In this document: in pieces, positions 7,381-63,233 of the stretch
How positions within the stretch are numbered: position 1 is the stretch's first letter
How the letters are laid out: each line of letters opens with the position of its first letter
IMG/VR virus record: IMGVR_UViG_2894657497_000001
Span: 25,820 to 89,819 of that record
Direction: 5' to 3' (one strand)
DNA from: a virus
Taxonomy: Duplodnaviria; Caudoviricetes
DNA: 64,000 nucleotides
Position numbers and translations under genes: made by a program
The notes under the pieces: generated by a model
Told to the model about the DNA's origin: nothing
The model's input: the letters and a program-made list of their open reading frames with translations, nothing else
Database searches by the model: none

Positions 7381-7416
7381 GAGGCATATCCTCCATTGTT
7401 TGATATACGCTACAAG

Positions 7417-7710
7417 CTAGGCATGCGAACGGACGCCAGCGCAGAAATCACACAGCCCGATGCCACGGTCACAGTAGCAATTCATCAAGGACATAGCCAC
7501 CTGAAGACGGACATCATGCGGAAGATCAGCGACCGGCACCCGCTCCCACCGGGAAAGATCGGGAATATCCATCCAGGCGCCGGAGTCGATAGCCCGCCGA
7601 TAAACGAAGTCGCCGCCAGGAGGCAGCAGCAGGACAGCACCGTTTTTAAAGAGCGTCTTGTAGCCTTCCTGCCGCCACATGCGAGCATTTTTCCAGGGCT
7701 TTGGGGTCAT
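7417..7710 (-). CDS. Hypothetical protein
   Basis: ATGA-coupled in the minus-strand operon. Confidence 0.5.
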   Translation of the reverse strand: MTPKPWKNARMWRQEGYKTLFKNGAVLLLPPGGDFVYRRAIDSGAWMDIPDLSRWERVPVADLPHDVRLQVAMSLMNCYCDRGIGLCDFCAGVRSHA

Positions 7711-8018
7711 GGATGTTCACCTTTCGCCCTTGCAATTAAGGGTTTAGCTTTTTGCAGAGAGCACGTTTTACAAGCACATTTGTCTCCAAGGCTCGGCTGG
7801 TGCGCGTAACGCTCCACCATGCAGTCGGTGAGAAGTTCCAACACATCCAACAGTTCTGGGGCGACGGAGATTAGTGCGGCGTAGGCTTCTTGCTCTGGTG
7901 ATGGTCCTCGGTATGTAACCACGGGGGCGGTTTTGGCATCTGCAACGGTAATGGACCGGGTTCCCATCTGGTTTCCCCTGCGTATAATCCTCCACGGACC
8001 CCTGATGTGTTTGCTCAT
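7707..8018 (-). CDS. Hypothetical phage protein (GPW...A.LI..APELL type)
   Basis: Recognisable GPW / LISVAPELL pattern; coupled to neighbours. Confidence 0.6.
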   Translation of the reverse strand: MSKHIRGPWRIIRRGNQMGTRSITVADAKTAPVVTYRGPSPEQEAYAALISVAPELLDVLELLTDCMVERYAHQPSLGDKCACKTCSLQKAKPLIARAKGEHP

Positions 8019-8335
8019 GGCCGCCCTCCCCCCGCTTTCGCTATGGCGGCAAGAGCCTTATCGATACGAGCTTGTGCATCCGGCTTTTGCTCGTCAGGCA
8101 ACCGTTCCGCCAACAGCCGGAATGGAGCCAGCACTGCATGCAGGGCGTCCAGCAGTTCGGGATACGCAGCGAAGCCAGCAGCCACCTGGTCGAGGCCTTC
8201 CACCGGGCAGCCAGTAAGCGCCGGCGACCAGGCGATTGCAACAACGCGCTTCCCATCGGCATCCAGCACCATGGGCGATTTAAGCAGCACGGAGCCCGTA
8301 GCATCGCCACGAGTAAAGGACAACGGTAATTTCAT
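8015..8335 (-). CDS. Hypothetical phage protein related to the preceding one
   Basis: GGAGG RBS; AAYPELLDAL...AIAKA. Confidence 0.6.
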   Translation of the reverse strand: MKLPLSFTRGDATGSVLLKSPMVLDADGKRVVAIAWSPALTGCPVEGLDQVAAGFAAYPELLDALHAVLAPFRLLAERLPDEQKPDAQARIDKALAAIAKAGGGRP

Positions 8336-8441
8336 GATTTACCTCCAAATAAAATTTTTTAGCGTAACACAGGATGAACTATTTCAGGGGTTCCCAAAGT
8401 CCCGAAAAATGCAATAACGCCGCCCCCACCGGCCAGAATAA

Positions 8442-8915
8442 TCAAAAGATGCGGTCGAAATCGGGCTCCCCTTCGGTCGGGTCGGCCAAAAACTTGTCCC
8501 GGTCGATGACATCAGCACAAGACAGAAAGGTATCCAACATCTTCTCGGCGAGGTCGGCATTACCGGAGCACCACCGGCTCTCGTTATCCCAGATAAACAG
8601 ATATTCCTCGCCAGTGCGGGCCTTAATCCTTACCTCCGTAACCCAGCAGGGGATGGTGATGGTGACCTCGTAATTGTTCGGCAGCGCAAAACCATAATCG
8701 GTGCAGAAACACCGGTCGTCTTTTACGACGGATCCGCAATCCACGCATTTTTCGCCTTCGTGTTTACCTGCCTCGGGAGTTTCAAAGCCCTGGCCCAAAG
8801 TCAGGTAGCCCACATAGGTGTCAACGCATGTCGGGTCGACGCGGCCCACGGTCTTCGACGAATGCGAGCCGATGATGCTGATCAGGTTGGCGAAATAGTC
8901 GATCCGGTTTCTCAT
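8442..8915 (-). CDS. Hypothetical protein
   Basis: GGAGG RBS before ATG 8915. Confidence 0.5.
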   Translation of the reverse strand: MRNRIDYFANLISIIGSHSSKTVGRVDPTCVDTYVGYLTLGQGFETPEAGKHEGEKCVDCGSVVKDDRCFCTDYGFALPNNYEVTITIPCWVTEVRIKARTGEEYLFIWDNESRWCSGNADLAEKMLDTFLSCADVIDRDKFLADPTEGEPDFDRIF

Positions 8916-8985
8916 TGCAATATCCTCCAAGGGTAGAATGACTACGGATGAGACAAGATGCCCGGCCAGAATGATGCGGCAAAGT

Positions 8986-9016
8986 GTTTGATATGCGCTA
9001 CACCATGCCATATACT
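8986..9016 (+). promoter_or_regulatory. Sigma70-like promoter overlapped by the 17-bp motif
   Basis: TTGATA(8988)-17 bp-TATACT(9011); motif GTTTGATATGCGCTACA at 8986-9002. Confidence 0.7.
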
Positions 9017-9044
9017 TAGCGCAACTACCTTTCCGGGGGCAAGA

Positions 9045-12000: not shown

Positions 12001-14165
12001 GTGACGCCGATGGCGACCCGAACAAGAAATGCATCGAGCGGATACAAAACGCGGTATTTACGAAGGTGTACGGAAGCTCCGTGCTGACCGAATTGCAGGC
12101 CGAGAGTGCGAAGCCGAAGATACGGAACGTCATGAAGGCGCTCAACGCATGCGTCCCCGACTTTGCCCAGACGCAGGGGCATGACGACCTGGATGTGGTG
12201 CCGGACATGATGGAGGCCATAGAGTACACCATGGCCCACCAGAGCGAGAGCCGGGCCGAACTGGAACACAACCTGCGGAATGCCGGCGCTCTGGATTTCA
12301 CCGGAGACACGCCGAAATTCAAAACTGATTTCGCAGTGGACATGATACTGGCCGTGGCCGACCGCACCGGATCCAGGAACCGCCTGGAGAACGTGTTCCG
12401 GGCGATCAGCAACGGGATAAAGGACGAGGTCGCCAGCAGGGAGAACCCAGAGGTGGATATGTTCTCCGGGCCGGCCAAGCCGAAGACCAAACAGCAGGTG
12501 GTAAAGCAGGCGCTTGACAAGGTGAGCCATTCCGATGAAGGTGTCAGGAAGTCATTGTGCGCCGCAGGCTTATACCTACTCACGAAAACCAAGGGAGGGA
12601 CATATGGCAGAACTGACCGAAGCACAGAAGTATGCCCGCAAGTCGAAACTGTTGCAAAAAGCACTGGCCGACGCGGACAAGATGGACGCAGCCGACAAGA
12701 AAAAAGCAACGGCGGAGAAGGCAAAGAAGAAACCGGAGACTGCGGCAAAGAAGGAGCAGTAGAACATCACTGCACAAAGAATACTTGCCCATCTTGTGGG
12801 TCGGAAACGACCTGCCGATGCATCAGAACCCCAAAAACCAAAGTCAAAATAACGCATGAACAGTGCTATTACTGCAAAACAGGTGAGCCCCGAGGCCCCC
12901 TGTTTAAAGCCGAATGTTCAGGCGTGTACCTGCTGCGCAAGAGCAACCCGAACCATGGCGAACATGGCAGGTTCGCAACAGGTAGCACCACGAAAACAAA
13001 CGGTCCTAACTACCTCTCCCCCACGGCAGAAACCAAAATTGGTCGTGGGATGGAAATTGCCAGAATGCTGAAACCACTCAATGTCCCCGACCTATATAAC
13101 AGCAACAATGTCACCATGGAAGAAGCGAAAAGCATAGGGACGCAATACTATAGGCTGAAATTGATGCCAACACCGATAAACAGCCCGGCATTTAATGGTG
13201 CCCCCATCAGATTTACTGAAACAGGATTGGCACATTTGCTTGGCAAGCACATGCGAGAAATACCGGAAGCCAGCATAAAAAGAAGGCTCAAATTGCTTCC
13301 GAAAGTTAAAGCAACACTCGAAACAACACCGTTCGTAGATGAAATTCGAGACAGGGCAGATGGGGCAAAAGAGTATGGTCTGCTCGGAAGGTTCACAGAC
13401 GGAGAAGTAATACGGGTGGCATTGGAAGAAAAGGTTGTCGGGGAAAGAACTTTCTTGACGGTATACGATTGGGAGGACGTAAGTAAAAAAATCAAGCGGG
13501 AATCCCAGCCGAACCCGCTCGCGGATGGCGCACTTCGTGGGGTGGGCGTGGCACCACATGCAACCATCCAAGACAATATTACCAAATCCACAATTTTGTG
13601 CAAGAGCAAAAACATCACCTTCAACTATGTGATTTTATCGGAAGAACTGTACCTCATCAGAAGAAAGGCACCGACCCCAAATGATGCCGCAGTTCGACAT
13701 CCCGAGTTCTTGATCAAGGCCCGCCCCCTCCATGGCCGCATAGACTTCAACGGCCTGAAAGTGAGCGTCGAGAACCGCATGGGCAGCATCCGGCAGTGGG
13801 AGGATCCGAACAACGGCGAAAACGGCATGACCAGGATGAAACGGCCATATGGGTACGTCAAAGGTACGCTCGGCGTCGATGGCGACCATTACGACGTCTA
13901 TGTCGGGCCGGACCGGGAGGCCCCCAACGTTTATATCATCACCCAAATGAAGGCCCCGGAATTCGCCGAAGTGGACGAGGAAAAGGCTCTGCTCGGATTC
14001 CCCAGCCAGGAGGACGCCGAAAAGTTCTACCTACAGCACTACAATGACCCGAGATTCTTGGGCAAGATAACGCCCATGCCGTTCGAGGAATTCAAGGCCC
14101 AGGTGATGACAACCAGGGCAAACCCCAGGCTGCTGGCGGAAGGCATTGGTACGCCCGCTGCGTAG
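9045..14165 (+). CDS. Large polyvalent virion protein (sigma-like HTH, HAD hydrolase, DdrB-like ParB, RelE/BECR-like nuclease, inorganic-pyrophosphatase-like domain)
   Basis: VKMKFGL...ESDIAAAL; CVDFDG...KP.AD.YLDD; YALVEADDL...QPR...APIV...ESGNGR; IRFTETGLAHL; VSVEN..GS.R...YGY..GT.G.DGDH.DV...DEEK.LLGF; start placed downstream of the promoter. Confidence 0.8.
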   Translation: MISLIKRILTKSQMSLFDWTPTHEETRARQGYTRHTASGAAVQVKPTMAKVTVRGGDGEDLHHGQKVYYRMPGQPRKKKGTIVSGSHEAGFVIQPNREGYVFHPPKISAHRDHIWTPDEHQAESAKSNIRETTSGGGSTISADESKRRAEIGQQRAQLSEAEVLQHPAFVKRMRAVLSHLAGTNGFNPHFVEANGVLHNDDPDANELYSEYITAAMNSYRTETSKAPQADLDELKANLEGKSKESRILLSMTRAGKTAALRHLMDNKERQQNENSYDSGAEDDFESGMQGLSGAVVEKKGEQATASDKAQLETGILRQLKRMDDPIAEAIVKMKFGLGNFEHGYKESDIAAALNRKRIPAPDGDAWDKEQVQTRMKTALGQLARTKGAQELRGFLKSMKALETLRKAESQNTVCVDFDGVIADYSQGFQGADIFGAPIKDPGTGLTAADVLSELKANGWKVIIFTTRQDTPALRDYLAMAGVPYDEINTNSDQPEGTNPGKPIADAYLDDRAVRFTSWDKAARDLKTINKSVRMVGSAKLYDLMDRFLLIKSHVRQYVRQDGSVVQAHDDKRIKKHQDILRHQNEHHEEIHTGATIKHGDELAEHLKNQGWKAREVHPVEKDEKAKPGKKEDMPEHEEIQAKNRDNPALQTAERGMKKMREAALASDDPAAVLHTMNTSRSNTYTAAVDDYREKLLNHLGYKVNRDKTATKYDKDGHTLIMSKDGDKHTIHFAGGDAAAKDKAIGNLQGKKEVQSVDTGKKTLTFTFGKDDKSYTAKLNPVHSKYALVEADDLTTSHTIQGHVNKAYPQEIQPRERERLSSQMQMANMMNDIKPELFTGAGMAAHGAPIVGKDGAVESGNGRTIALAEAYQRGLADHYKEHIKKNAADFGLKPEDVDKMKNPVLVRVRNDDDPNTDRAEFAREANDTGNLGSSPAEQAWTDASRIDDTLLKKFMVDEDGEVYNDDNMEFINGFLDKLGKNEAAGLRDADGDPNKKCIERIQNAVFTKVYGSSVLTELQAESAKPKIRNVMKALNACVPDFAQTQGHDDLDVVPDMMEAIEYTMAHQSESRAELEHNLRNAGALDFTGDTPKFKTDFAVDMILAVADRTGSRNRLENVFRAISNGIKDEVASRENPEVDMFSGPAKPKTKQQVVKQALDKVSHSDEGVRKSLCAAGLYLLTKTKGGTYGRTDRSTEVCPQVETVAKSTGRRGQDGRSRQEKSNGGEGKEETGDCGKEGAVEHHCTKNTCPSCGSETTCRCIRTPKTKVKITHEQCYYCKTGEPRGPLFKAECSGVYLLRKSNPNHGEHGRFATGSTTKTNGPNYLSPTAETKIGRGMEIARMLKPLNVPDLYNSNNVTMEEAKSIGTQYYRLKLMPTPINSPAFNGAPIRFTETGLAHLLGKHMREIPEASIKRRLKLLPKVKATLETTPFVDEIRDRADGAKEYGLLGRFTDGEVIRVALEEKVVGERTFLTVYDWEDVSKKIKRESQPNPLADGALRGVGVAPHATIQDNITKSTILCKSKNITFNYVILSEELYLIRRKAPTPNDAAVRHPEFLIKARPLHGRIDFNGLKVSVENRMGSIRQWEDPNNGENGMTRMKRPYGYVKGTLGVDGDHYDVYVGPDREAPNVYIITQMKAPEFAEVDEEKALLGFPSQEDAEKFYLQHYNDPRFLGKITPMPFEEFKAQVMTTRANPRLLAEGIGTPAA
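12604..12762 (+). CDS. Small Lys/Ala-rich ORF nested out of frame inside the polyvalent gene
   Basis: AGGGAGGG RBS then ATG; MAELTEAQKYARKSKLLQKALAD... Confidence 0.45.
   Translation: MAELTEAQKYARKSKLLQKALADADKMDAADKKKATAEKAKKKPETAAKKEQ
13485..13603 (-). ncRNA. Candidate antisense small RNA (about 85 nt) with its own promoter and terminator
   Basis: TTGCAC-16-TAATAT with extended TG; GGATGG/CCATCC stem; AGCGGG/CCCGCT hairpin followed by a T7 tract. Confidence 0.5.
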
Positions 14166-14192
14166 CGCATACCAAACAAAGGAGGTGTTGCC

Positions 14193-15401: not shown

Positions 15402-15415
15402 CGGGGAGACAAATA

Positions 15416-15446
15416 GTTTGACATACGCTACACCCGCCAATACCAT
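15416..15446 (+). promoter_or_regulatory. Sigma70-like promoter overlapped by the 17-bp motif
   Basis: TTGACA(15418)-17 bp-TACCAT(15441). Confidence 0.75.
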
Positions 15447-17510: not shown

Positions 17511-18947
17511 ATGGTACTGTCTTATGACCAGATCCTTAAAAGCGCCGGCATGGAAATCACCGGCGATGACCGGGTAGAAGATCTCCGCAAGGCCCTCTAC
17601 TCGACCCAGAGCGGCGCCGCTTCCGGCTCGTCTGCCGGCCCGCTGATGCTCGAAAACCTGGACTCGGTGATGACCGAAGTCCTCTACACCGAGAAGCACT
17701 TCAAGGTGTACAACTACCTGCCCAAAGTCCCGAGTGCCCAGGCGTACTACCAGTACAACAAGCACACCGGATACGGCAGCAACCGTGCCGGTGGCGCAGG
17801 CTTCGCTGAAGGTGGCGCACCGCAGGGCCGCAACTCTACGTTCTCGCGTAACGGCGTCTACACCAAATACCTCGGCGTCCAGGGCGGCGTTACTCACCAG
17901 ATGCTGGTGGCCGGCCAGAACGGTGGCGTGTTTGAAGACCCGAACGTCCGTGAGAACCGCGACCGCACCCTGGAACTGCTCGAAAAAATCGAGCGCGAGC
18001 TGGTGTTCGGCCAGGCTGCCATCCAGGACGGCAACGGCGTCGAGGTCAACTTCGACGGCCTTCTGACCTCCCTCATGGCGCAGAAATCGTCCAACGTGAT
18101 CGATATGCAGGGCAAGCCTCTGGGATTCAGCAACCTCGACGAATCCGCGCTCTCGTTGGTCACTACCGGCAAGCAGCCCTCCGTCGATGGTTACATCTGC
18201 CTGAGTTCTGCCCACGTTAAGAGCGGCCTCAACAAGCAGTTCGCCGCCGCCAACATGGTCCGTATGAACAAGGATACCGCAACCGGCCAGGTCTATACCC
18301 CCGGTACGGCAATCGATAAGTACGACACCGAGTTCGGCACCATGCAGCTTGACCACAGTATCTTGCTGCAGGAAGTCGATGGTGGCGTACCGGCAACAGT
18401 CGCTCTGGCCAACTCCCCGGCGATTCCTGCCATCACCACCCAGCCGGCAGCAACGGCAGATGCCGCCTCCACCCTGTTCGCCGGGACGTACTACTACTCG
18501 GTGGCAGCCTTCAACGACGTGGGCGAATCGCTGCCGGTCGTCTGCACCGCAGTAGCCCCCACCGCAGGCCAGCGGGTCACCATCGTGATCACCCGTACCA
18601 CCGGCGCCACCGGCTACCGTATCTACCGCGGCCTTGCTGCTGACGGCTCCGACGCCAAATGGATTGCTAAGGTGGCCCAGACCGCTGCCGGCAACCTGAC
18701 GTTCGTCGACCAGGGCGCATGGAAACCGCTGGACGTCAACGGTAAACCCGGCGACGGTATCGCAATCCTGTTCAAGCCCAACCCGGCAGACATTGCGATT
18801 GCCCAGATGACCCCGCTGATCAAGATGCCGCTGCCGCAGGTTGGCACCATCTTCCCCTTCCTGCTCTTGGTCTACATGGTGAGCGTGCTCAAAGCCCCCG
18901 AGCGCCTGATCATTTACAAGAACTGCGGGACTTACCCTACGGCGTAA
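17511..18947 (+). CDS. Major capsid protein (Herelleviridae-like, with an Ig/FN3-like insertion)
   Basis: LRKAL...PLMLENLD, EVNFDGL, TYYYSVAAFN.GES, IAQMTPLIKMPL; strong RBS; followed by a terminator. Confidence 0.9.
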   Translation: MVLSYDQILKSAGMEITGDDRVEDLRKALYSTQSGAASGSSAGPLMLENLDSVMTEVLYTEKHFKVYNYLPKVPSAQAYYQYNKHTGYGSNRAGGAGFAEGGAPQGRNSTFSRNGVYTKYLGVQGGVTHQMLVAGQNGGVFEDPNVRENRDRTLELLEKIERELVFGQAAIQDGNGVEVNFDGLLTSLMAQKSSNVIDMQGKPLGFSNLDESALSLVTTGKQPSVDGYICLSSAHVKSGLNKQFAAANMVRMNKDTATGQVYTPGTAIDKYDTEFGTMQLDHSILLQEVDGGVPATVALANSPAIPAITTQPAATADAASTLFAGTYYYSVAAFNDVGESLPVVCTAVAPTAGQRVTIVITRTTGATGYRIYRGLAADGSDAKWIAKVAQTAAGNLTFVDQGAWKPLDVNGKPGDGIAILFKPNPADIAIAQMTPLIKMPLPQVGTIFPFLLLVYMVSVLKAPERLIIYKNCGTYPTA

Positions 18948-18971
18948 GTAGCGTATAGCAAACAGTGAGCA

Positions 18972-22803: not shown

Positions 22804-22843
22804 CCATGATGTAGCGCATAGCAAACAAAGGGAGGTTCACAAC

Positions 22844-25908: not shown

Positions 25909-25978
25909 GACAAACTCCTTCGGAAAACGGTGGTCGCGTTGTAGCATATATCAAACAGATTGCAAGGAGGAATAGCCC

Positions 25979-26386: not shown

Positions 26387-26407
26387 CCGCAGCGTAGCGC
26401 ATGGCAA

Positions 26408-26430
26408 GCGGGGAGGTAGCCCCTCCCCGC
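26408..26430 (+). terminator. GC hairpin after the tube gene
   Basis: GCGGGGAGG-tagcc-CCTCCCCGC; weak T tail. Confidence 0.45.
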
Positions 26431-30755: not shown

Positions 30756-30948
30756 ATCTCACCTCGTTTTTTTTGATGTGGCCACCATTCGGTGCGCCAA
30801 ATGCTCGGACCTCGACAGGGACCAGAAGCCGCCCCGCCAGAATGATATCGCCACAACGCGCATTACAATGCTCAATCGGCAAAGCTCTCGCCGGTTATGC
30901 GTAAGATAACGCGCTTTCGCCCCGCCTGAATGGTATTCCCACCAAACT

Positions 30949-30978
30949 GTTTGATATGCGCTACAGATTTGCTACCAT
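30949..30978 (+). promoter_or_regulatory. Promoter overlapped by the 17-bp motif
   Basis: TTGATA(30951)-16 bp-TACCAT(30973) with extended TG. Confidence 0.65.
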
Positions 30979-32912: not shown

Positions 32913-33595
32913 GTATGATGGATGAAACCGGGGCACGGCTGCAGGAGACGCTACGGACGCATCCTGCGTTCCAAGAGATAGCGAACGTCGACCGGCTGCT
33001 GCGCGGGACGATAATGCCCAACGGGGTACTGTTCAAAGACGACGCCAAAAACACCACCGGCATCACGCTTGTGAATGTGTCCTTGATGGGGGGATACCCA
33101 GATATTTATGGTGTCCCTGTAGCGCATACCAAAATCAATTATCAGACCGGAGAAGAGTGGTCGCCGGACCCTGGCGACGTGGTACTGGTGAGCTTCATAA
33201 ACGGAAACTTTTGGGAGCCCGTCGTAATAGGGTATCTACCCCTCCCCCAAAACCAGATCGAGGGCAAACGGAGTGACGTACCTGCAGGTAAGCGCCGCTA
33301 CCACTTCAAATGCAACAAGACCGACATCACCGTGGACAAGGACGGGAACCGAGACACCAGCGTCCAGGGACATGACAGCCTGACGATCCAGACCGGTGAC
33401 TATACCGTGAACGTCGTGGCCGGGAAATGCACCGTAAACGTCAAGGGCAAGACCGTATGGACTTCCGATGGCACCGTGGAGATTGACGGCTCCGGCAGCG
33501 GCGCGGTGGCCGGAGTTGTCCAGGGAGACTGCCTGTGCGCCTATACGGGGAAGAAACATCCTATGGTATCGTCAACAGTGAAAGTGAGTAAATAG
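32909..33595 (+). CDS. Baseplate spike (gpV-like)
   Basis: OB-fold P.PGDVVLVSFING...PVVIG, beta-repeat and C-terminal C...G..H tip. Confidence 0.8.
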   Translation: MSMMDETGARLQETLRTHPAFQEIANVDRLLRGTIMPNGVLFKDDAKNTTGITLVNVSLMGGYPDIYGVPVAHTKINYQTGEEWSPDPGDVVLVSFINGNFWEPVVIGYLPLPQNQIEGKRSDVPAGKRRYHFKCNKTDITVDKDGNRDTSVQGHDSLTIQTGDYTVNVVAGKCTVNVKGKTVWTSDGTVEIDGSGSGAVAGVVQGDCLCAYTGKKHPMVSSTVKVSK

Positions 33596-37376: not shown

Positions 37377-37383
37377 GCAAACT

Positions 37384-37413
37384 GTTTGACATACGCTACA
37401 CGTTGGATACGAT
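37384..37413 (+). promoter_or_regulatory. Promoter overlapped by the 17-bp motif; leaderless transcript predicted
   Basis: TTGACA(37386)-16 bp-TACGAT(37408); ATG 37420 is 6 nt after the -10; no SD. Confidence 0.65.
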
Positions 37414-40011: not shown

Positions 40012-40039
40012 CGTGTAGCGCATAGCATACGAGGCATTC

Positions 40040-50360: not shown

Positions 50361-50542
50361 TATTTCCTCCCGAAAAGGTCTGGCTGCCAGGCCCTGAATA
50401 ATTCCGGCTGCCACCAGATGTGAATGACCCTGCGCCGCTTCCATATTTTCCCGAGCTTCTTGGCACATGTGGCCCCCATGCCGCGCTTGATGCTTTCAGG
50501 ATCCTTCAACCGGCGATGACAACGAATACAGCGCAATGGCAT
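50360..50542 (-). CDS. DUF6011-like small Zn protein
   Basis: C.RC.R.L.DPES..RG.G..C. Confidence 0.7.
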   Translation of the reverse strand: MPLRCIRCHRRLKDPESIKRGMGATCAKKLGKIWKRRRVIHIWWQPELFRAWQPDLFGRK

Positions 50543-50563
50543 GCCAACCTCGTTTTGTATGCG

Positions 50564-50761
50564 CTACACACGGCGCTTATTAAAAATCGTCGATAACAAA
50601 TCAGGGATATCTAAAGAGGTTCTGGTTTTTTGAGACAAATCCAGAGCCACCCTCTTTTTATTGCAATCAGAGCAGAGACACACCATGCCTTTTCTGAGGG
50701 AGGCATCGCGCACCTCCCCCAGAAACAGACCACAGCCAGCACATGACAGAGTACGAGTCAA
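50564..50761 (-). CDS. Small Zn-finger protein
   Basis: CAGC...LRKG..CLC.DC. Confidence 0.55.
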   Translation of the reverse strand: MTRTLSCAGCGLFLGEVRDASLRKGMVCLCSDCNKKRVALDLSQKTRTSLDIPDLLSTIFNKRRV

Positions 50762-53278: not shown

Positions 53279-53320
53279 TACATCCTCCAAATTTTGCTAT
53301 ACGCTACAGCCAAGAAACTG

Positions 53321-54256: not shown

Positions 54257-54283
54257 AATCGTCTCCTTTTATTTCGATATACG

Positions 54284-55588
54284 CTACGCAGCCCGCAGCG
54301 CTTTGACATCATCAGCGAAGGCCGCCCCACGCTTATCAATCTCGGTAGCGACCCTACCGTAGAACTCCCGCAGGGTGGTATAGTCAAGATCATCAACGAT
54401 TGAACCGCCATACATTGAGGCCGCCAGATTATCCATATCGGCCAGGAAAAGCCCCTGGGGGGCAACCAATGCGTTAAGGGCATCGATACCCGCCTTGGTT
54501 CCCTTTTGGGCCTCCTGACTGGCCTGGGGCACAGGATCAGGAGAAGAAGAAGCTGCAGGAGCTTCCACGGGAGCAGCATCATCGGAAAAAGGAAGATCAG
54601 CGGCAGGTGTCGGGGGCAATGCGGCGGCGGCAGGAGCAACACCGGTCAGGGCCGACAGAGCATGCAGCGACCGTGCGGCCACAGCCTGTGGCTCGGCGTA
54701 GCGGGCCAGTTCCATTGGGTCGACTGCCAACTCAATCGTGACGATCCACTGCTGCTGCTTTTTCCCGTCAGGGGTCTTCACCACTTCGGACACCTTGCAG
54801 AGTTCGAAAAAGGCATTGCCATTGAACAGCCCGTCGAAGCGCCCCAGGATGCCACGCACCCGGCGCAGGATGGCAACCGACTCCCCGAGGCCATACCAGG
54901 AACGAGTCGGAACGACGATCTCGCCGGCCCCGCGGCAGCCAGGTACATAGACGCGGTACATCCCGCCGAATACGACCTTGTAACCGCACGCCTTTGTGGC
55001 CACGTCCTCGTCGTCGGAATCCAGAACCTTCCAAACATCGGGTTTAGCGGGGAGCTTCGTGTCCTTGGGGATGTAGCGAAATTTCAGCTTGGGGCCGTCG
55101 TAGAACGAGACGCACCGGAGATTGGCGCCCCCATCAAAAGCCCGGAAATTATGGGGGATGACCTTCTCGATATCCGACAGCGGGAGCCAGCACGGGATGC
55201 GCCGGACCTTGCCATCGGGATCGGCGTAGTTTTTGCGGATATACTCGGCATCGGCGGGGCGTTTGAAGTCCTCGTCACGGATGGTGAAATAGTCGCAGTT
55301 CGAGGGGAACAAGCAGGTTTTCTTGGTGTAGCCTCTCGGCGCCAGCTTGAGCATTTCGGCATCGATATCACTAAACCCATGACCCTCGTCCAGCATCCGG
55401 TCATACACGGCCCGCTGCTCTTTCGTGCATTCCTTCATCGGCACCTTAATTCCTGGTCGGATAACACCAGCGTGCCGGATTTTCTCGCGGTCACCGAGCA
55501 GCATCTGGACCTCATGCAAATCACCGGTCTCAACGATATTTGCAATGGCGCTGGTGTTGTCCAGGCCTTCATCAACCGTATCTGACAT
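54284..55588 (-). CDS. Gp3/recombination-directionality-factor-like (putative single-strand annealing) protein
   Basis: G.IRPG.K, DYF, C...G...V.VP..G.G......T.SW; position among recombination genes. Confidence 0.6.
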   Translation of the reverse strand: MSDTVDEGLDNTSAIANIVETGDLHEVQMLLGDREKIRHAGVIRPGIKVPMKECTKEQRAVYDRMLDEGHGFSDIDAEMLKLAPRGYTKKTCLFPSNCDYFTIRDEDFKRPADAEYIRKNYADPDGKVRRIPCWLPLSDIEKVIPHNFRAFDGGANLRCVSFYDGPKLKFRYIPKDTKLPAKPDVWKVLDSDDEDVATKACGYKVVFGGMYRVYVPGCRGAGEIVVPTRSWYGLGESVAILRRVRGILGRFDGLFNGNAFFELCKVSEVVKTPDGKKQQQWIVTIELAVDPMELARYAEPQAVAARSLHALSALTGVAPAAAALPPTPAADLPFSDDAAPVEAPAASSSPDPVPQASQEAQKGTKAGIDALNALVAPQGLFLADMDNLAASMYGGSIVDDLDYTTLREFYGRVATEIDKRGAAFADDVKALRAA

Positions 55589-55644: not shown

Positions 55645-57129
55645 TCAGCGCGACTCCATAACTTTTTTTAAACGTAAGCCCAGCCAGTGCATACAGGGAA
55701 CCGCCATGCTATTGCCATAAGCCTTATATTGTGGTCCATCAGGGCATTCGGCAGCCGGTTTTCCCCGCCATGGTATTTGGGTATAATGGTCTGGAAATCC
55801 TTGAAGCCGGGCACATTCTACAGGCGTTAAGCGTCGCACCGCAGTCCCAGCAATGTAGCTGCGAGAACTACCGCCACTGGCAGCGCGAAGGCTTGCCACC
55901 TCTGCCACCTCTGCCACCTCTGCCATCGCGCCACCTTCGCGGCCACGGAGGTTGAAGGCTGTGACTTGTTGGTCAGCCTTCATGCAAAGGACAGCCGTTG
56001 TGCTGCTGTTTTCCACACCACTTGGCGTTCTAGAACGTAGCGCCGTAGCAATATTGGCAAAAGAGGCAACTCTTGCTGTCCCATCAGTACCATGGAAAGT
56101 GACCCCTTGAGGGTAGACCGGGGCCAGTGGTGTTCCACGGCCAGTGCCGTCTTCGGAAGCGTCAAAGCCTTCTCCGCGCAGAGTATGGGCTACCAACATC
56201 CCTGATTCCGCATCCTGCTGAGTGGCTGAACCCACCGCCTTGCCGGAACTACATAAAGTACCAACCACAAAAGTTTCCGTTTCAAAATCCATACGACCAC
56301 TGCCGCCCTTGGCATTACAGGCTGTGGCTATATCAATCGGTCCGGTTGTGTTGTTACCCCCATAACTGGCGATAAGGCGGTTTGTTTGTCCCTGGTTATC
56401 ATCTGCTCCGCATGTTCCAACGCCATTTGCAGTGAGGGCGGCAACACACGCCCCCGCTTCTCGGCCCTCCGCAGTATCCCGGCGCATGCCCTTGCGCTCA
56501 AAAAGTACCGCTCCGGGATTGAACCGGTCTCGAGCACTTGCGACAACGAAGACACGACGGCGTCGTTGGGGCACTCCGAAATATTGAGCATCGAGAATTC
56601 GCCAGGCAGCCGCTCTCCGGGGTCCAATAACCAGACCCGCGTTTGTCCAGCCGACCCTCCCCGGAACGAGTGGGGCATCCTCTCCCACAATCCCAGCGAG
56701 GAAGCATCCAAAAGCATTGTCGGGCGTATTAAGGCATCCAGGGACGTTTTCCCAGATACAGACGGCTGGTTCGCGTCCAGCAGCAACTCGAACATCGTCA
56801 ATTGCATCAAGGATTCGGACGAATTCAAGGGTAAGTTTTCCACGATCATCCTCCATAGATTTACGCAAACCGGCGACTGAGAATGCCTGACATGGTGTGC
56901 CCCCAACCAAAATATCAGGAGCAGGAACCTCCCCAGAGCGGACCATCGCAGCGATCTTGGTCATATCCCCAAAATTTGGCACGTCAGGGTAATGGTGAGC
57001 AAGGACTGCGCACGGGAAAGGGGAGACTTCCGAAAAGCCGACAGGTACCCAGCCAAGGGTATCCCACGCCACGGTAGCTGCCTCAATTCCACTACACAAA
57101 CTCAGATAACTCGCCGCAGATTCGTTCAT
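55645..57129 (-). CDS. C5-cytosine DNA methyltransferase
   Basis: SLCSGIE, GGTPCQ, WENV, QRRRRVF, RRLTP.EC.RLQGFPD, GNS. Confidence 0.95.
   Translation of the reverse strand: MNESAASYLSLCSGIEAATVAWDTLGWVPVGFSEVSPFPCAVLAHHYPDVPNFGDMTKIAAMVRSGEVPAPDILVGGTPCQAFSVAGLRKSMEDDRGKLTLEFVRILDAIDDVRVAAGREPAVCIWENVPGCLNTPDNAFGCFLAGIVGEDAPLVPGRVGWTNAGLVIGPRRAAAWRILDAQYFGVPQRRRRVFVVASARDRFNPGAVLFERKGMRRDTAEGREAGACVAALTANGVGTCGADDNQGQTNRLIASYGGNNTTGPIDIATACNAKGGSGRMDFETETFVVGTLCSSGKAVGSATQQDAESGMLVAHTLRGEGFDASEDGTGRGTPLAPVYPQGVTFHGTDGTARVASFANIATALRSRTPSGVENSSTTAVLCMKADQQVTAFNLRGREGGAMAEVAEVAEVASLRAASGGSSRSYIAGTAVRRLTPVECARLQGFPDHYTQIPWRGKPAAECPDGPQYKAYGNSMAVPCMHWLGLRLKKVMESR
56328..56843 (-). CDS. Overprinted ORF resembling the alternative-frame beta polypeptide of M.EcoHK31I
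   Basis: GEF..LN..E.P......SLSQVLET...YFLS..AC.GILRRA..RG..LP; GGAGG 6 nt before GTG 56843. Confidence 0.55.
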   Translation of the reverse strand: MENLPLNSSESLMQLTMFELLLDANQPSVSGKTSLDALIRPTMLLDASSLGLWERMPHSFRGGSAGQTRVWLLDPGERLPGEFSMLNISECPNDAVVSSLSQVLETGSIPERYFLSARACAGILRRAEKRGRVLPPSLQMALEHAEQMITRDKQTALSPVMGVTTQPDRLI

Positions 57130-57150
57130 TATGCGCTACACCCCGGATAT

Positions 57151-57186: not shown

Positions 57187-57324
57187 CTCTGGAAACAGGG
57201 GATCCCGAAGGGCCACCTGAAACCAAAATGTGATGCGTGCTCCGACAAGCCGCCTTATTTGCAGGGGAGACAATACGCCCCCCCGCAAATAATATCAAGA
57301 AAAATGTTCGCCATACGCTACAGA

Positions 57325-58035
57325 CTACAGAATAATAGCCACGTCGGGGCATTCGGCCTGCAACCAGGTGCAAATGCGCTTCTTGGCTTCCAGCTTCCAG
57401 GCCGAACCATCCGCCTCAAAGAGAGCCCCCTGCGGCTTATCGGATCCTGACCGCAGCCGGAAGACGAAACTGGACTCCGGCTGCGCGACCTCGGAGAAGG
57501 TGCGAAACGGGGCCAGAGAAACAGGATTAGGTACTTCCGCAGGACCGACCTTGGCAATACCGGTCTTGGCTGTTACTTCCTGGCTAATGCCATCATCAGC
57601 GAACGTTCTGACGTTACCCTCCGAGATGGCGCTGACAAATTTCTGCATGGATTGGACCGCCTCGTTCTGCACAAACTGGCTCAACAGCGAGATCAGGAAG
57701 TCCTCGTGCTCATACCATTGTCCGAACCGGAAGGAATGGACAAACGGGACGGCAACCGCATAGATTTTGCGCTGGACAAAACTGCCATCGAGCTTCGACA
57801 CCAGCATGACCTTGTCGTGGTCCGCGACGTGGAGCATCAGATCGCTCTTATCGAGCCCGTCCACGTTCTCCTTCAGATAGTTGGCCAGACCGGTCAACGT
57901 GTTCATCGCCAGGGCATCAGGGGCAGGATCCAGCACAGGGATAAGCCTCTCCGTCGAGTATTTGCGACCATTTGATTCCACCAGGACGGGACGGGCCATT
58001 TCTTCCACTTTTTCGAGAAAACTTTTGTCAATCAT
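57325..58035 (-). CDS. Conserved hypothetical phage protein
   Basis: TLTGL..Y, DDGISQ, PNPV.L.PFRTF.EV.QP.S.FVFR, LFEADG..W. Confidence 0.85.
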   Translation of the reverse strand: MIDKSFLEKVEEMARPVLVESNGRKYSTERLIPVLDPAPDALAMNTLTGLANYLKENVDGLDKSDLMLHVADHDKVMLVSKLDGSFVQRKIYAVAVPFVHSFRFGQWYEHEDFLISLLSQFVQNEAVQSMQKFVSAISEGNVRTFADDGISQEVTAKTGIAKVGPAEVPNPVSLAPFRTFSEVAQPESSFVFRLRSGSDKPQGALFEADGSAWKLEAKKRICTWLQAECPDVAIIL

Positions 58036-58050
58036 CGGGTACTACTCCTT

Positions 58051-58578: not shown

Positions 58579-59031
58579 TCAAACCTCGTGAATCTCCAAC
58601 CCCAGGACCGTCGCCATCAGATGTTTTTTACTGCGATACGTCGGATTTTTGCGAAGGTGCGGCGACTTTGAATCTTCGATCACGAGCCGGCCATCCTGCC
58701 GATAGGTAAAGTCGGCGCGATACCGAAGCTCGGGTTTTTTCCGGCCATCCAGAACCACAGCCGGCGCCAAGACGAACCACACCTGAAGCTTCAACTCGGA
58801 GATCACACCTGCCCGTTCCAGTATTTTCAGGTGGAGATACCGCCCGGCCTCCCGCTTTGAATCGAAAAGGATCCCGTCGACCTCGACCTTGACATTACCG
58901 TGCTTGGATGCCCTCTTTTCCAAAGAGCCCCGGCAGAGCGTCGCACTCTGGCGCTCGCAGCTACGGCAGGTAGGATGGTCAGGAGAATAGGACCGGCCAA
59001 CAGCACAATGCACAGCAGACCCGTTTCTCAT
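58579..59031 (-). CDS. DUF1064-like PD-(D/E)xK nuclease
   Basis: DG..FDSK.EA.RY..L, Y.ADF.Y, IEDSK. Confidence 0.85.
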   Translation of the reverse strand: MRNGSAVHCAVGRSYSPDHPTCRSCERQSATLCRGSLEKRASKHGNVKVEVDGILFDSKREAGRYLHLKILERAGVISELKLQVWFVLAPAVVLDGRKKPELRYRADFTYRQDGRLVIEDSKSPHLRKNPTYRSKKHLMATVLGLEIHEV

Positions 59032-59050
59032 GCGCTACACCGGCCATACA

Positions 59051-60729: not shown

Positions 60730-61621
60730 TCTCCCAGAATTTCCAATCTTCGAATTTTACCCCGTCAGGAGGGACGATGCCCCGATCACGCGCCTGTTCG
60801 GTGATCTGGATCCAATCGATCTTGCGGCTCACGATCCGGTTCACCCCGCTGACGAGATTGCCCAGGGAAACGCCGTGTTCGACGAACCAGGCGTCGTCAA
60901 CGACCAGCAGATAAGCTGCGTAGGCGACAAGCCGGGAGATCGGGTAGATAGCGAGCAGAGATTTGATATGAGCCGCATCTTTGCCGGAGTAGTGGTAAGC
61001 ATCTCCGTAGAGCTTCTCGAACGACCAGCACCACCAGCGAGTGAACCGCTTATGGTCGGCACTCCCCTCCTTAACCGCATGAGAGCGAGAACGCGGTGCA
61101 GCCGGAGGCGAAGCCGAAGGAGGCGACGCAAATGTTTCCTGTTCCTGTTCCTGTTCCTGTTCCTGGTTTAAAAAGGGTTCCGAAAGGGTTTCGCAAGGGT
61201 TTAAAAAGGGTTCCAAAACGGAGCGATCAACCTTGTTTGTAAAAGTGCTCAACGCCACAGCAGCAAGCCGTTTGAGTGGGGTGGAGTCTGGGATTTGCGT
61301 GAATAATTTTGCAGCGCTCTTGGCCTGATTGGGATTTTCGATTTCATTCCACTTTATGAACTTGGAAATCAGCACCCATTTTGTGGTTGGACAACGCTTT
61401 ACAAACCCTTTAGCAGACAGTTCAGTAAACCCTTTCGTAACCCTTTCGGAAGGCCAATCCAAATCCTCTGAAACATATCCATCAGGAAGTCGGAAACACC
61501 CGATCAAATTTGTGTGAGGGCAGGTGAGTAAGTAAACGGCCAGGAGCTTGCCATCGTCCGACAGACCTTTTATATCGATGCTGGTCCAGAAGGATGTGTG
61601 CAGCTTCCCATAATCTCGCAT
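60710..61621 (-). CDS. Phage replication initiator
   Basis: MRDYGK...FW...YLLT.PH.N..G.F; EQEQEQE linker; adjacent to dnaB. Confidence 0.8.
   Translation of the reverse strand: MRDYGKLHTSFWTSIDIKGLSDDGKLLAVYLLTCPHTNLIGCFRLPDGYVSEDLDWPSERVTKGFTELSAKGFVKRCPTTKWVLISKFIKWNEIENPNQAKSAAKLFTQIPDSTPLKRLAAVALSTFTNKVDRSVLEPFLNPCETLSEPFLNQEQEQEQEQETFASPPSASPPAAPRSRSHAVKEGSADHKRFTRWWCWSFEKLYGDAYHYSGKDAAHIKSLLAIYPISRLVAYAAYLLVVDDAWFVEHGVSLGNLVSGVNRIVSRKIDWIQITEQARDRGIVPPDGVKFEDWKFWENVSDQP
61173..61445. repeat. Iteron-like AAGGGTT repeats (putative origin)
   Basis: Direct copies at 61173, 61184, 61195, 61206 (11-bp phase); inverted copies at 61404, 61428, 61439. Confidence 0.7.
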
Positions 61622-61847: not shown

Positions 61848-61878
61848 AACTTACATCGGTCTGTAGCGTATAGCAAGC
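61848..61878 (-). promoter_or_regulatory. Promoter overlapped by the 17-bp motif
   Basis: TTGCTA-17 bp-TAAGTT on the minus strand. Confidence 0.55.
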
Positions 61879-61902
61879 AATTTATTCACCATACGCTACA
61901 GA

Positions 61903-62412
61903 CTAAATCGAATTTGCCAGGGCCAGGACGTGCTTTGAATACTGCTCCGCATTTGCCCCAGCACCATTATAGCGGCGGACAGCCAGCGCGAGCCTTCCGC
62001 CAGATGCGTCGACCAGTTCGTCGAGGATCCGTTCAGCAGAGCGCGTCTGGCTCGACCAGGTGTGCCCCGGATGCCCCCATTGATGAGGCATGATCTGGTA
62101 GGCCCCGATCTCGCCGGCACGTCCACGAGCATGTAAATCAAAACGAGATTCCCGGGCGGCGATGGCTGCCAGCACCCGGGGGTGATCACAGGTTGCCAAA
62201 ACGTCGGCAATTTCAGGGGCGCGATCACCGGCGCCATGCTTACGGGCGAACCGCTCGATTCTTTTGGAAAGGTCAGAACGCGGCTTGAGCAAGACCCTCC
62301 CGGCACGGTTACCTTCGATTTTCTCGGGAGAAACGTGTCGGGCGTAATCTCCAGAGCCGGCTGTTGCTGCAGGGAGTAACAAACATCCCAAAACGATAGA
62401 CAATCGTATCAC
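61903..62412 (-). CDS. Exported SLT-like transglycosylase
   Basis: Signal peptide; AIAARES.F...A.G..GEIG.YQI...RYNG; AGGAGG before GTG. Confidence 0.75.
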   Translation of the reverse strand: MIRLSIVLGCLLLPAATAGSGDYARHVSPEKIEGNRAGRVLLKPRSDLSKRIERFARKHGAGDRAPEIADVLATCDHPRVLAAIAARESRFDLHARGRAGEIGAYQIMPHQWGHPGHTWSSQTRSAERILDELVDASGGRLALAVRRYNGAGANAEQYSKHVLALANSI

Positions 62413-62467
62413 TAGCAATACCTCCTATGAATATTTAATAATTACACATAACTTCCTGTAATTATTA

Positions 62468-62872
62468 TTAAAATGGAATATCGTCGTCTCTAAAAGGCGG
62501 TTCCTCCTGATCACCAGCCACAGATTCGGAGCGCCCCTCATTTTTAGAAGAGAGCATCTGCATCTGCATCCCGACAATCTCGGTCGTATAGCGGTCGGCG
62601 CCGGAGTTGTCCTGCCATTTCCGGGTCTGGATACGCCCCTCGATATACACCAGTGCTCCCTTGGCGAGATACTCGCCGGCGATCTCGGCCAGCTTCGACC
62701 ACAACTGGATGTTGTGCCATTCCGTTTTCTCCTGCTTCTCTCCGGATTTGTCCTTGAACGTCTCGGACGTGGCCAGGGAGAAATTGCAGACAGCAGTGCC
62801 GGAAGCGGTGAAACGAACCTCCGGATCCTTACCGAGTCGGCCTATCAGTATGACCTTGTTCAATGAAGACAT
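62468..62872 (-). CDS. ssb: Single-stranded DNA-binding protein
   Basis: [17 protein letters not shown]...KTEWH...DDIPF. Confidence 0.97.
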
Positions 62873-62902
62873 ACGGTACTCCTTTCAATCGTTTGGTATG
62901 CG

Positions 62903-63196
62903 CTACAAAGAGCGCGAGTAAAAAAGGATATTGAGCCGAGCGATAAGATCCTCGACCGCATCGAGATCACCCCAGAATGACCGCTTGCCGATTTGATGAA
63001 CACGCAGGTGGCACTCACAGCCACAAAGAGGAACCGCCCGATAGTCGGATACCTTGAGACCGATGGACGAATGACCGGCAGCAGGATGGTGATGAGCATT
63101 CGACGGCCCGAAGCGTCCGCATTTAGCGCACGGCAGAGAACGTATGAATTGCAGGTAAACCTCGTCACGTTCTGCCGTTTCTTTTGGGAATAGCAT
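62903..63196 (-). CDS. DUF968-like HNH-fold protein, leaderless start
   Basis: YL.FIRSLPC..CG...AHH...K.SD..AVPLC..CH...H. Confidence 0.8.
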   Translation of the reverse strand: MLFPKETAERDEVYLQFIRSLPCAKCGRFGPSNAHHHPAAGHSSIGLKVSDYRAVPLCGCECHLRVHQIGKRSFWGDLDAVEDLIARLNILFYSRSL

Positions 63197-63202
63197 TGCT
63201 GG

Positions 63203-63233
63203 AGGATACACAAAGGTGTAGCGCATGTCAAAC
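63203..63233 (-). promoter_or_regulatory. Promoter overlapped by the 17-bp motif; leaderless transcript predicted
   Basis: TTGACA-17 bp-TATCCT; ATG 63196 is 6 nt downstream. Confidence 0.75.

Follow-up and report, generated by a model that had tools for sequence, protein, structure and literature searches.

A 17-bp asymmetric word, GTTTGnYATRCGCTACA, recurs across the genome of a temperate phage of a Geobacter-like (Desulfuromonadales-like) host in two classes of opposite orientation, i.e., promoter copies co-oriented with the genes (P class) and inverted copies at gene junctions (J class), and both classes are conserved in related genomes. On balance we favour the view that the word is the operator of a 188-aa phage protein, which would repress the P sites and act as a polar roadblock at the J sites. 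By analogy, the J sites most probably function in the way that the stoperators of mycobacteriophage L5 do.

Occurrence of the motif

The DNA analysed (the window) comprises 64,000 nt, positions 25,820-89,819 of the IMG/VR record IMGVR_UViG_2894657497_000001; the whole 89.8-kb genome of this record is designated G000 and was compared with the relatives G001, G004 (a fragment), G006, G007 and G008. Megablast of 10 kb against the GenBank phage collection returned no match; all phage-collection matches of the major head protein were below 30% identity, and none was found in plasmids.

An earlier note on this DNA had counted 22 copies of the word, with the core intact in 21 of them, and this count was reproduced. 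The full-pattern scan of the window gave 20 copies with at most two mismatches (0.06 expected from shuffled windows, the largest shuffle value being 2), to which two copies with three mismatches and an intact core (54272 and 61884) were added. The core ATRCGCTAC has 21 exact matches in the window against 0.51 expected; the single exception is the copy at 25940, which reads ATATGCTAC. In the whole genome there are 29 copies with at most two mismatches, 26 of them centred in the non-coding DNA that makes up 15% of its length (binomial p ~1e-18), and a few are intragenic. The flanks carry no information beyond ~25 bp, hence the copies are not a mobile repeat. Occurrence in host DNA, a point raised in the same note, is at chance level only: two candidate host genomes (3.8-3.9 Mb) hold 4 and 5 copies, and a reversed-pattern control gives the same.

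The copies in the window and the gene of the proposed binder are listed below, the gene coordinates being those of our own simple gene caller, by which a few places are miscalled.

7398..7414, + strand: J copy without mismatches, 18 nt 5' of the start of a minus-strand methyltransferase-like gene (5800-7380)
8986..9002, + strand: P copy, TTGATA, 17-bp spacer, TATACT, GCAAA just upstream; predicted promoter of the 1693-aa DdrB/methyltransferase-like gene (9084-14165)
14161..14177, - strand: J copy, holds the TAG stop of the 1693-aa ORF, 16 nt 5' of the start at 14193
15416..15432, + strand: P copy, TTGACA, 17-bp spacer, TACCAT; predicted promoter of the head operon, which includes the genes of the protease (15882-16775) and the major head protein (17511-18947)
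18947..18963, - strand: J copy, immediately 3' of the stop codon of the major head protein, with a G+C-rich hairpin following it
22810..22826, - strand: J copy, 18 nt 5' of the start at 22844
25940..25956, - strand: J copy with the variant core, 23 nt 5' of the start at 25979, whose gene adjoins the sheath gene
26393..26409, - strand: J copy between the stop of gene 25979-26386 and the start at 26452, 43 nt 5' of the latter, with a hairpin after the copy
30949..30965, + strand: P copy, TTGATA, 16-bp spacer, TACCAT; predicted promoter of the tail/baseplate operon starting at 31006, divergent from an anti-repressor-like gene (30024-30755)
33118..33134, - strand: J-oriented copy, intragenic, in gene 32915-33595
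37384..37400, + strand: P copy, TTGACA, 16-bp spacer, TACGAT; predicted promoter 20 nt 5' of gene 37420-38553
40014..40030, - strand: J copy, 10 nt 5' of the start at 40040
50552..50568, + strand: J copy among minus-strand genes, contains the stop of ORF 50564-50761
53292..53308, + strand: J copy, 14 nt 5' of the minus-strand start at 53278
54272..54288, + strand: J copy with an intact core and 3 mismatches, includes the stop of 54284-55588, 16 nt 5' of the start at 54256
57124..57140, + strand: J-oriented copy, overlapping the start codon ATG of the gene for the C5 cytosine methylase (55645-57129)
57306..57322, + strand: J-oriented copy, just 3' of the stop of gene 57325-58035
59023..59039, + strand: J-oriented copy, overlaps the ATG of gene 58579-59031 (DUF1064)
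61862..61878, - strand: P copy, TTGCTA, 17-bp spacer, TAAGTT; predicted promoter of the replication operon, with genes for a DnaD-like loader (60710-61621) and a DnaB-like helicase (59368-60723); one member of an inverted pair
61884..61900, + strand: second member of the pair, with 3 mismatches but an intact core, in reverse orientation at 5 bp from 61862-61878; the two form a bivalent site
62891..62907, + strand: J copy that includes the stop codon of the DUF968 ORF, 19 nt 5' of the ssb start at 62872
63217..63233, - strand: P copy, TTGACA, 17-bp spacer, TATCCT; predicted promoter of the DUF968-ssb-transglycosylase operon
63434..64000, - strand: gene of the tandem XRE-type HTH protein (188 aa), the proposed binder; the record ends at its start codon

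Two classes of copies and their orientation

The P class numbers six copies in the window and seven in the genome. Sigma-70-type promoter features were found in all seven, namely a -35 hexamer TTGAYA (TTGCTA at 61862) with TAnnnT 16-18 bp downstream, the spacers of the six window copies being 16-17 bp; the promoters proposed earlier (8986, 15416, 30949 and 37384 on the + strand, 61862 and 63217 on the - strand) are thus upheld at the sequence level. In six of the seven the -35 hexamer agrees with the consensus at 5-6 of 6 positions, and a generic scan for promoter-like sites places two P copies among its best.

These promoters might alternatively be the target of a phage factor that binds at -37 to -21 in the lytic cycle and activates or retargets RNA polymerase at the late promoters, possibly together with GCAAA, the J copies then reflecting some other role of that factor. 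The late-operon promoters do share a 25-bp block, GCAAAnnGTTTGAYATRCGCTACA, with -10 boxes of only moderate quality, and a conserved Cys-rich 177-aa early protein belongs to the set common to the four complete genomes. We nevertheless give this explanation a small chance. Since the -35 hexamers are at or near consensus and the spacers are normal, a protein located there would compete with sigma and not replace a missing -35 element. Moreover, the early replication and ssb promoters have the same motif, while the J copies, without a -10 box and in some cases directly followed by a hairpin, would be senseless for a promoter.

On the sense strand of the genes around them, the other 16 window copies read TGTAGCG...CAAAC; their strand flips with that of the genes, so that the inversion described in the earlier note holds against the gene strands. 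They lie in short intergenic gaps, mostly 10-23 nt 5' of a start codon; as the ORF ends confirm, stop codons at 14163, 50564, 54284 and 62903 and start codons at 57129 and 59031 fall inside copies, and the copy at 33118 is indeed intragenic. Between same-strand neighbouring genes of G000, 19 copies are inverted and 4 co-oriented, a -10 box being present in 4/4 of the co-oriented against 5/19 of the inverted ones. All 19 unambiguous non-promoter J copies have a single orientation (p = 4e-6). A hairpin directly 3' of a J copy was found twice in the window, twice in G001 and once in G007. The possibility that the J copies are antisense promoters was rejected, as an antisense TAnnnT accompanies 5/19 of them in G000 and 1/17 in G001 and is not general.

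Given that most J copies end 10-23 nt 5' of a start codon and always on the sense strand, they could act in RNA as UGUAGCGYAURNCAAAC, located 0-7 nt before the Shine-Dalgarno sequence and serving as a translational operator or processing site. We hold this to be very improbable: the same word is inverted and untranscribed at the promoters, no Rfam family matches the window, and the candidate binder described below is made of predicted DNA-binding HTH domains. The L5 stoperators, which act on DNA, also adjoin Shine-Dalgarno sequences, so that the position follows from the shortness of intergenic gaps.

Two resemblances to known elements were also considered. TGTAGCGY resembles the ops element; NusG/RfaH-type antitermination was rejected, as no NusG N-terminal domain was detected in the genome at E <= 1 and the inverted promoter copies do not fit it. 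Part of the inverted motif resembles by eye WATCAA, the IHF consensus, but half of the copies break this consensus, and an IHF-like site was set aside as well.

Conservation in related genomes

The same 17-bp word is present in 27 copies in G001 and 15 in G006, both with P and J classes, and in 5 copies in the G004 fragment; the use of one asymmetric site at promoters and at gene junctions, claimed at first for this DNA alone, is therefore a conserved trait. In G001, four of the six co-oriented copies have the full sigma-70-type promoter geometry. G007 and G008 are without this word and carry TTTGAYATAGGGAAC, in which one half-site is swapped (type II, the 17-bp word being type I). G007 has 19 type II copies at <=2 mismatches in the same two classes, some of them at shared places, namely upstream of the portal and baseplate genes and, beside a hairpin, 3' of the major head gene. 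The latter position (18947 in the window) is also occupied in G001; no copy at <=2 mismatches was found after the major head gene of G006. The position of 37384 holds a P-class site in G001, G006 and G007, and ssb is preceded by a J-class site in G001 and G006 too. The block of GCAAA plus site is retained in the type II genomes, which is likewise consistent with the lytic activation considered above. The conservation of the additional GCAAA at the late promoters is itself an observation beyond what a repressor model explains.

The relatives also bear on whether all copies are bound by one protein with the J copies merely as auxiliary sites, raising local concentration or supporting looping or spreading silencing, and with orientation as a by-product, e.g., of avoiding a sense -35-like hexamer inside operons. 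Consistent with this, the -35-like hexamer in the J copies is often degraded or antisense; the paired, bivalent arrangement at 61862/61884 recurs in G006; and at the matching promoter of G001 the overlapping copy is lost, the inverted copy just upstream being retained. We consider such a passive role rather unlikely, since L5 stoperators keep a sense TTGACA, and avoidance of the hexamer is thus not a general need, and since the J orientation is strict (19/19) and recurs in the type II genome, as would be expected of a polar function more than of a passive reservoir.

Candidate binding protein

The binder of the word is likely the 188-aa protein, which appears to consist of two lambda-repressor-like HTH domains. 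Of the 133 G000 proteins, 30 are common to all four complete genomes, and it is the sole recognisable HTH protein among these. The earlier note had named several candidates, of which the tandem HTH protein is favoured by gene-site linkage and co-variation; of the other three candidates, the BRO-N protein looks like an anti-repressor, and the anti-repressor-like protein is outside the four-genome core; the ParB-like protein is absent from this core; and the sigma-like domain is a weak match inside an endonuclease ORF that is absent from G001. A phage sigma factor was accordingly rejected, the only Sigma70_r4 match (13.4 bits, below the cut-off) lying in this 369-aa endonuclease-like ORF, for which blastp found no match in G001.

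The structure model of the 188-aa protein reached a pLDDT of 95.3 and a pTM of 0.91. In fold searches its domain 2 (residues 99-178) matched the P22 c2 repressor (Z 7.3, rmsd 1.9 over 66 residues) and the 434 repressor (Z 6.9, rmsd 1.6 over 63 residues), both at Z < 8 and hence not decisive by themselves; Foldseek gave single-domain matches to 434 Cro and SinR, and no solved structure convincingly spanning both HTH domains was found by these searches. The Pfam matches to HTH_31 (17.5 bits, cut-off 27) and HTH_19 (14.6, cut-off 30.2) are below the curated cut-offs; some homologues carry a precomputed PF13560 match.

A motif copy is located 71-118 bp upstream of the tandem HTH gene in 12 of 14 other loci with readable DNA. 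It is a type I site in 11/11 loci with the domain-1 helix PI(K/Q)S..Y.SRLE and a type II site in the one readable locus (1/1) with the helix PLSIAYLSRIE, while the two loci with other domain-1 helices have neither type upstream. From these sequences the site type appears to follow the recognition helix of domain 1, a co-variation that comprises two site types only, the type II genomes being more distant overall. A search for a third motif type by de novo word counts in the loci of distant homologues (L051, L038, L050) gave composition noise only. One of the 11 type I loci lies in a genome bin of Pelobacter, where matches to other G000 proteins are absent within 10 kb on either side; the homologue there has one site and no network, which indicates that a protein of this type can act as a plain autoregulator. 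As the region upstream of the gene is absent from the G000 record, autoregulation is visible in the relatives only. G000 also encodes a separate CI-like repressor (HTH + S24 peptidase) whose own operators differ from the 17-bp word, hence the tandem HTH protein need not be the lysogeny repressor.

The linkage to the HTH gene, seen in 12/12 readable loci whose domain-1 helix is of type I or type II, also argues against the copies being a signal with an orientation bias that serves replication, recombination, packaging or DNA modification and has no role in gene expression. Motif orientation follows gene strand, which itself often follows replication direction, and several methyltransferases are encoded by the phage; yet a single block of co-directional genes can hold copies in either orientation, the orientation depending on promoter features, and the copies are nearly all intergenic. 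We find such a signal scarcely credible.

Proposed mechanism and its implications

In the repressor model that we favour, the 188-aa protein would be a built-in pseudo-dimer with two HTH domains in one chain, binding as a monomer, as described for the L5-family repressor with its two DNA-binding domains (PMC9283540, PMC6550527, PMC5712189). Domain 1 would read the strongly conserved half CGCTACA and domain 2 the weaker half GTTTGA. The weak half would double as the -35 box TTGAYA at the seven sigma-70-type promoters of the lytic operons (portal, DarB-like protein, head, two tail/baseplate, replication and ssb), where the bound protein would exclude RNA polymerase from the promoter. At the ~22 further copies, inverted in short gaps, a transcribing polymerase would meet the strong half first, and these copies may thus serve as polar roadblocks of the L5-stoperator kind that silence read-through in the lysogen.

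A more general reading, which we offer only tentatively and would not ourselves bet on, is that for a single-chain pseudo-dimeric repressor the orientation of the site encodes its function: with the weak half as -35 box it would be an operator, and inverted between genes a gate that RNA polymerase passes one way only. Joint changes in the domain 1 recognition helix and one half-site, the other half remaining fixed, would then give rise to immunity types, and the network would represent a second stoperator system that evolved independently, in Gram-negative hosts. As one small protein would face the same 17-bp word in both orientations, the long-open question of stoperator polarity becomes directly testable, and a one-way gate, if true, would provide a clean natural experiment on the cause of polarity in protein roadblocks. 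CGCTACA and GGGAAC, the two specificity types that occur in nature, suggest an easy path to new immunity types and could give orthogonal repressor-operator pairs for engineering. Should the J copies not block elongation, the finding would be that of an unusually rich operator set.

Comparison with known systems

To our knowledge, genome-wide silencing through dozens of asymmetric repressor sites has so far been worked out only in cluster A mycobacteriophages. Similarly to the network of these phages (L5 gp71, Bxb1 and the TipsytheTRex repressor), as presented in the corresponding papers and in our scan of L5, dozens of copies of one asymmetric site occur here, mostly in short gaps just before ribosome-binding sites and oriented with respect to transcription, with at least one copy over a -35 box (PMC9283540, PMC6550527, PMC5712189). 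The differences are considerable. The site is 17 bp long as against 13 bp. In the L5 scan 8/8 sites of the Pleft region (one operator and seven stoperators) and 25/26 genome-wide have one orientation, so that operator and stoperators are co-oriented, whereas the promoter copies of G000 are opposite to the junction copies; the contrast with L5 suggested in the earlier note is thus borne out. The 188-aa protein has no sequence likeness to gp71 (BLASTP E 0.32 over 9 residues) and is modelled as two XRE-type domains, unlike the HTH plus 'stoperator domain' of gp71. Finally, the phage differs from L5 in its Desulfuromonadales-like host, contractile tail, plasmid-type iterons and separate CI-like repressor.

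The C1 repressor of phage P1 reportedly binds as a monomer. According to the annotation of the P1 record, its operators are dispersed, asymmetric and 17 bp long, monovalent as well as bivalent (inverted pair), in a ~90-kb genome, as in G000; the iteron-flanked rep gene, the DnaB-like helicase, the ssb gene and the DdrB-like protein of G000 are further likenesses to P1. The 188-aa protein is without likeness to C1 (BLASTP E 0.48) and the site sequence differs; in the 3.8-kb stretch of the P1 record considered, the C1 operators are at promoters, whereas about three quarters of the G000 copies are at junctions without promoter features. Eukaryotic POU domains and single-chain pseudo-dimers, with two linked HTH domains reading two different half-sites, provide a design analogy only; a POU complex appeared among the weak Foldseek rows (E 0.64, probability 0.33).

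The 22-bp repeats of T1 and Stevie, phages of Gram-negative bacteria, are also asymmetric, mostly intergenic and in one orientation, and their authors, in the passage devoted to them, liken them to stoperators; these phages are lytic, and that passage describes no binder or promoter class for the repeats (PMC4319613). The G000 network looks like an independent invention, which would have arisen in another type of phage, in another bacterial phylum and with another protein, apparently composed of two fused lambda-repressor-like domains.

Occurrence of the 17-bp motif

The motif network is real, strong and conserved. Within the window, the pattern GTTTGnYATRCGCTACA was matched 20 times at no more than two mismatches, against 0.06 matches expected, and its core ATRCGCTAC was matched exactly 21 times, against 0.5 expected; the addition of two copies with three mismatches brings the total to 22, and the scan thus reproduced both the coordinates and the count reported in the earlier note. 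The complete source genome (G000), a single virus record of 89,819 bp placed in the provirus class of IMG/VR, of which the window spans bases 25820-89819, contains 29 copies at up to two mismatches, 26 of which are centred in the non-coding 15% of the sequence. In two candidate host genomes (3.8 and 3.9 Mb) the same threshold returned 4 and 5 copies vs. 4 and 9 for the reversed-pattern control. The flanks of the motif carried no information outside the 17-bp word, the window matched no Rfam family, and no NusG-like gene was found in the G000 genome.

Gene content of the phage

The genome encodes a portal protein, a head protease with the major head protein, a tail sheath and baseplate proteins, as well as a 1693-aa protein, one part of which is P1 DdrB-like. 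It also encodes a DnaD-like helicase loader, a DnaB-like helicase, SSB, a transglycosylase and several methyltransferases. Other features are as follows.

Window 24838-25947, minus strand: endonuclease-like ORF of 369 aa (phrog_4645) with a weak sigma region 4-like HTH
Window 30024-30755, minus strand: anti-repressor gene of the BRO/Ant type (phrog_463, E 9e-49), in divergent orientation to the motif's promoter copy at 30949
Window 43670-44761, 44942-47404, 50758-52095 and 52097-52870, minus strand: block encoding an RtcB-like tRNA ligase, SbcC-like and SbcD-like nuclease subunits and a ParB-like protein
Window 63434-64000, minus strand: 188-aa tandem HTH protein
G000:C1:1-2261, outside the window: classical switch adjoining a tyrosine integrase gene and made up of a CI-like repressor (HTH and S24 peptidase) and, divergent from it, a Cro/Xis-like HTH gene (HTH_17)
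G000:C1:16966-18982, outside and upstream of the window: rep-like gene (336 aa) flanked by 13 and 12 iterons with a 36-bp period

The 369-aa ORF has the look of a homing endonuclease; it separates the tail sheath gene from the following tail gene, an insertion that is absent in the relative G001. The anti-repressor gene is found in G001 and lies outside the core shared by four genomes. The true start of the CI-like repressor gene is near position 1769, and the region between it and the HTH_17 gene contains TTGACT, 17 bp and TATACT along with GACGCA/TGCGTC inverted repeats; these differ from the motif, no copy of which occurs in the switch region. The rep-like gene is 76% identical to its G001 counterpart and contains one motif copy, which occupies the same codons in the two; its 36-bp iterons (AGCGAGCC ... 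AGAAACCC) surround it in the layout of a P1-type plasmid replicon.

Promoter and junction copies of the motif

The word lies across the -35 box and spacer of sigma-70-type promoters, and inverted copies of it lie between genes. Seven genome copies, six of them in the window, belong to the promoter (P) class: they run from GTTTG to ACA in the direction of the downstream genes and contain TTGAYA (once TTGCTA), followed after 16-18 bp by TAnnnT. The promoter geometry that the earlier note had proposed for the six window copies was thereby borne out, and the stop and start codons it had placed inside motif copies agree with the ORF ends.

At the late-operon promoters, GCAAA is conserved 2-3 bp upstream of the motif, with which it forms a CAAAnnGTTTG palindrome. 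The element was also present in G001, G004 (a fragment) and G007, and was absent from the junction copies and from both early promoters. Conserved early proteins of 177 aa (Cys-rich) and 200 aa would be candidates for reading it. Its positions in G000 are:

Window 8979-8989: GCAAA element
Window 15410-15420: GCAAA element
Window 30943-30953: GCAAA element
Window 37378-37388: GCAAA element
Genome 24608: GCAAA element

The copies of the junction (J) class have the opposite orientation in 19 of 19 unambiguous places (p = 4e-6). Read on the sense strand, the order is [stop] TGTAGCGYATRnCAAAC, 0-7 nt, GGAGG and ATG, the start codon being 10-23 nt away in 11 of the 19. A G+C-rich hairpin directly follows two J copies in the window, namely 18947, after the major head gene, and 26393, after the gene at 25979-26386; two further cases were observed in G001 and one in G007. 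These hairpins speak against a promoter role of the J copies. When J copies are selected by the core alone, they still conserve the left half GTTTG, which is therefore part of the recognised word beyond its role as a -35 box.

Five J copies (genome 2505, 4444, 7789, 48629 and 52212, which include window 22810 and 26393) have GGTTA in common at a fixed distance; on the sense strand it reads TAACC, whose TAA forms the upstream stop codon. All of them except 7789 thereby gain an antisense TAnnnT at 16-bp spacing, a feature not shown by G001.

Relatives and a second type of site

No close relative of G000 was found in the GenBank phage and plasmid collections. In IMG/VR, G001 and the G004 fragment encode major head proteins 67-68% identical to that of G000. 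Type I copies, i.e., those of the motif itself, number 27 in G001 and 15 in G006, with both classes in each, and 5 in the G004 fragment. G007 and G008 have no type I copies and carry TTTGAYATAGGGAAC instead (19 copies at up to two mismatches in G007). The layout of this type II word matches that of type I, as copies with TTGAYA and a -10 box precede operons, and inverted ones stand immediately upstream of ribosome-binding sites; comparison of the words shows a left half, TTTGAYAT, common to both and a type-specific right half. Each of the four complete genomes has a P copy ahead of the portal operon and another 20-39 nt before the orthologue of the gene at 37420-38553; the major head gene is followed by a J copy in three, G006 being the exception.

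G007 (L025-L029) has about nine copies of another repeat, some 40 bp long and confined to one strand (ACCACCAGTTAA...GGTTTCTTTTC...TGAAGGG and a hairpin), which often adjoins type II sites. It was noted in G008 as well and, in a related form, in G002 and G003; it was not seen in G000.

Candidate binding protein

Matches in each of G001, G006 and G007 exist for 30 of the 133 G000 proteins, and just one of these 30 is a recognisable HTH protein: the 188-aa product, which shares 57% identity with its counterpart in G006 and 37% with that in G007. Its alignment points to an internally duplicated XRE-type domain. In the predicted fold (pLDDT and pTM both very high), residues 99-178 align in structure with the DNA-binding domains of two repressors, P22 c2 (Z 7.3) and 434 (Z 6.9), in agreement with single-domain Foldseek matches. 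About 24 homologues exist, none of them characterised. A homologue is also carried by each of two genome bins, whose titles are Pelobacter sp. and Geobacteraceae.

The region upstream of the gene was surveyed at 16 loci, of which 14 were readable: the G000 record stops at the start codon, and L023 begins at a contig end. A type I site was located 71-118 bp upstream of the start codon at all 11 loci with the domain-1 helix PI(K/Q)S..Y.SRLE; at the single locus with the helix PLSIAYLSRIE, in G007, a type II site lies 86 bp upstream; the remaining two readable loci, with other domain-1 helices, had neither type upstream. The Pelobacter bin is one of the 11 type I loci; there the gene adjoins a tRNA gene, and no match to other G000 proteins was found within 10 kb on either side. 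Between the types, domain 2 and the left half-site change little, and domain 1 and the right half-site change. Because the latter two change together, domain 1 would be the part that reads CGCTACA, as far as two site types only can indicate. Gene-site linkage and co-variation thus support the 188-aa protein as the likely binder of the motif.

A direct repeat (TTTGTC, 4-6 bp, TTTGTC) was noted within the 60 bp before the tandem HTH gene (L039-L050, L037, L046). In nearly all loci it is flanked by the operator copy on one side and the ribosome-binding site on the other, and it adjoins an att region or the 3' end of a tRNA; possible roles are those of integrase arm sites or of a second operator.

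Proposed mechanism and comparison with known systems

The 188-aa protein would occlude the seven P-class promoters, and at J copies it would form a roadblock at which the polymerase meets the tightly held half first. The P orientation would be forced, since TTGACA is resembled by the weak half alone. Speculatively, induction might proceed from cleavage of the CI-like repressor, by way of an early or Ant-type anti-repressor, to release of the network.

Our literature searches, with sources available in part, returned no description, outside cluster A phages, of such a system or of dispersed sites served by a tandem XRE repressor. When the L5 genome was scanned with the consensus GGTGG(C/A)TGTCAAG given in PMC5712189, at up to one mismatch, 25 of 26 sites had the same orientation relative to genes, including all eight at 50,397-51,773, a region described as containing the Pleft operator and seven stoperators (PMC5712189). 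On the sense strand the L5 sites read CTTGACAKCCACC, followed by the ribosome-binding site, so that adjacency to a Shine-Dalgarno sequence is shared by both phages. In L5, however, the -35-like half points along transcription throughout, whereas in G000 the P and J copies are mutually inverted; the point made in the earlier note about the opposite orientations is correct. The 188-aa protein has no sequence relation to L5 gp71 or P1 C1. Since the L5-family repressor is described as a monomer with two DNA-binding domains (PMC9283540), the design principle is shared and the protein is not. Judged from sequence, the description that fits the system best is that of a stoperator-like operator network whose candidate repressor is of a new kind and whose sites obey a two-orientation rule unseen in L5.
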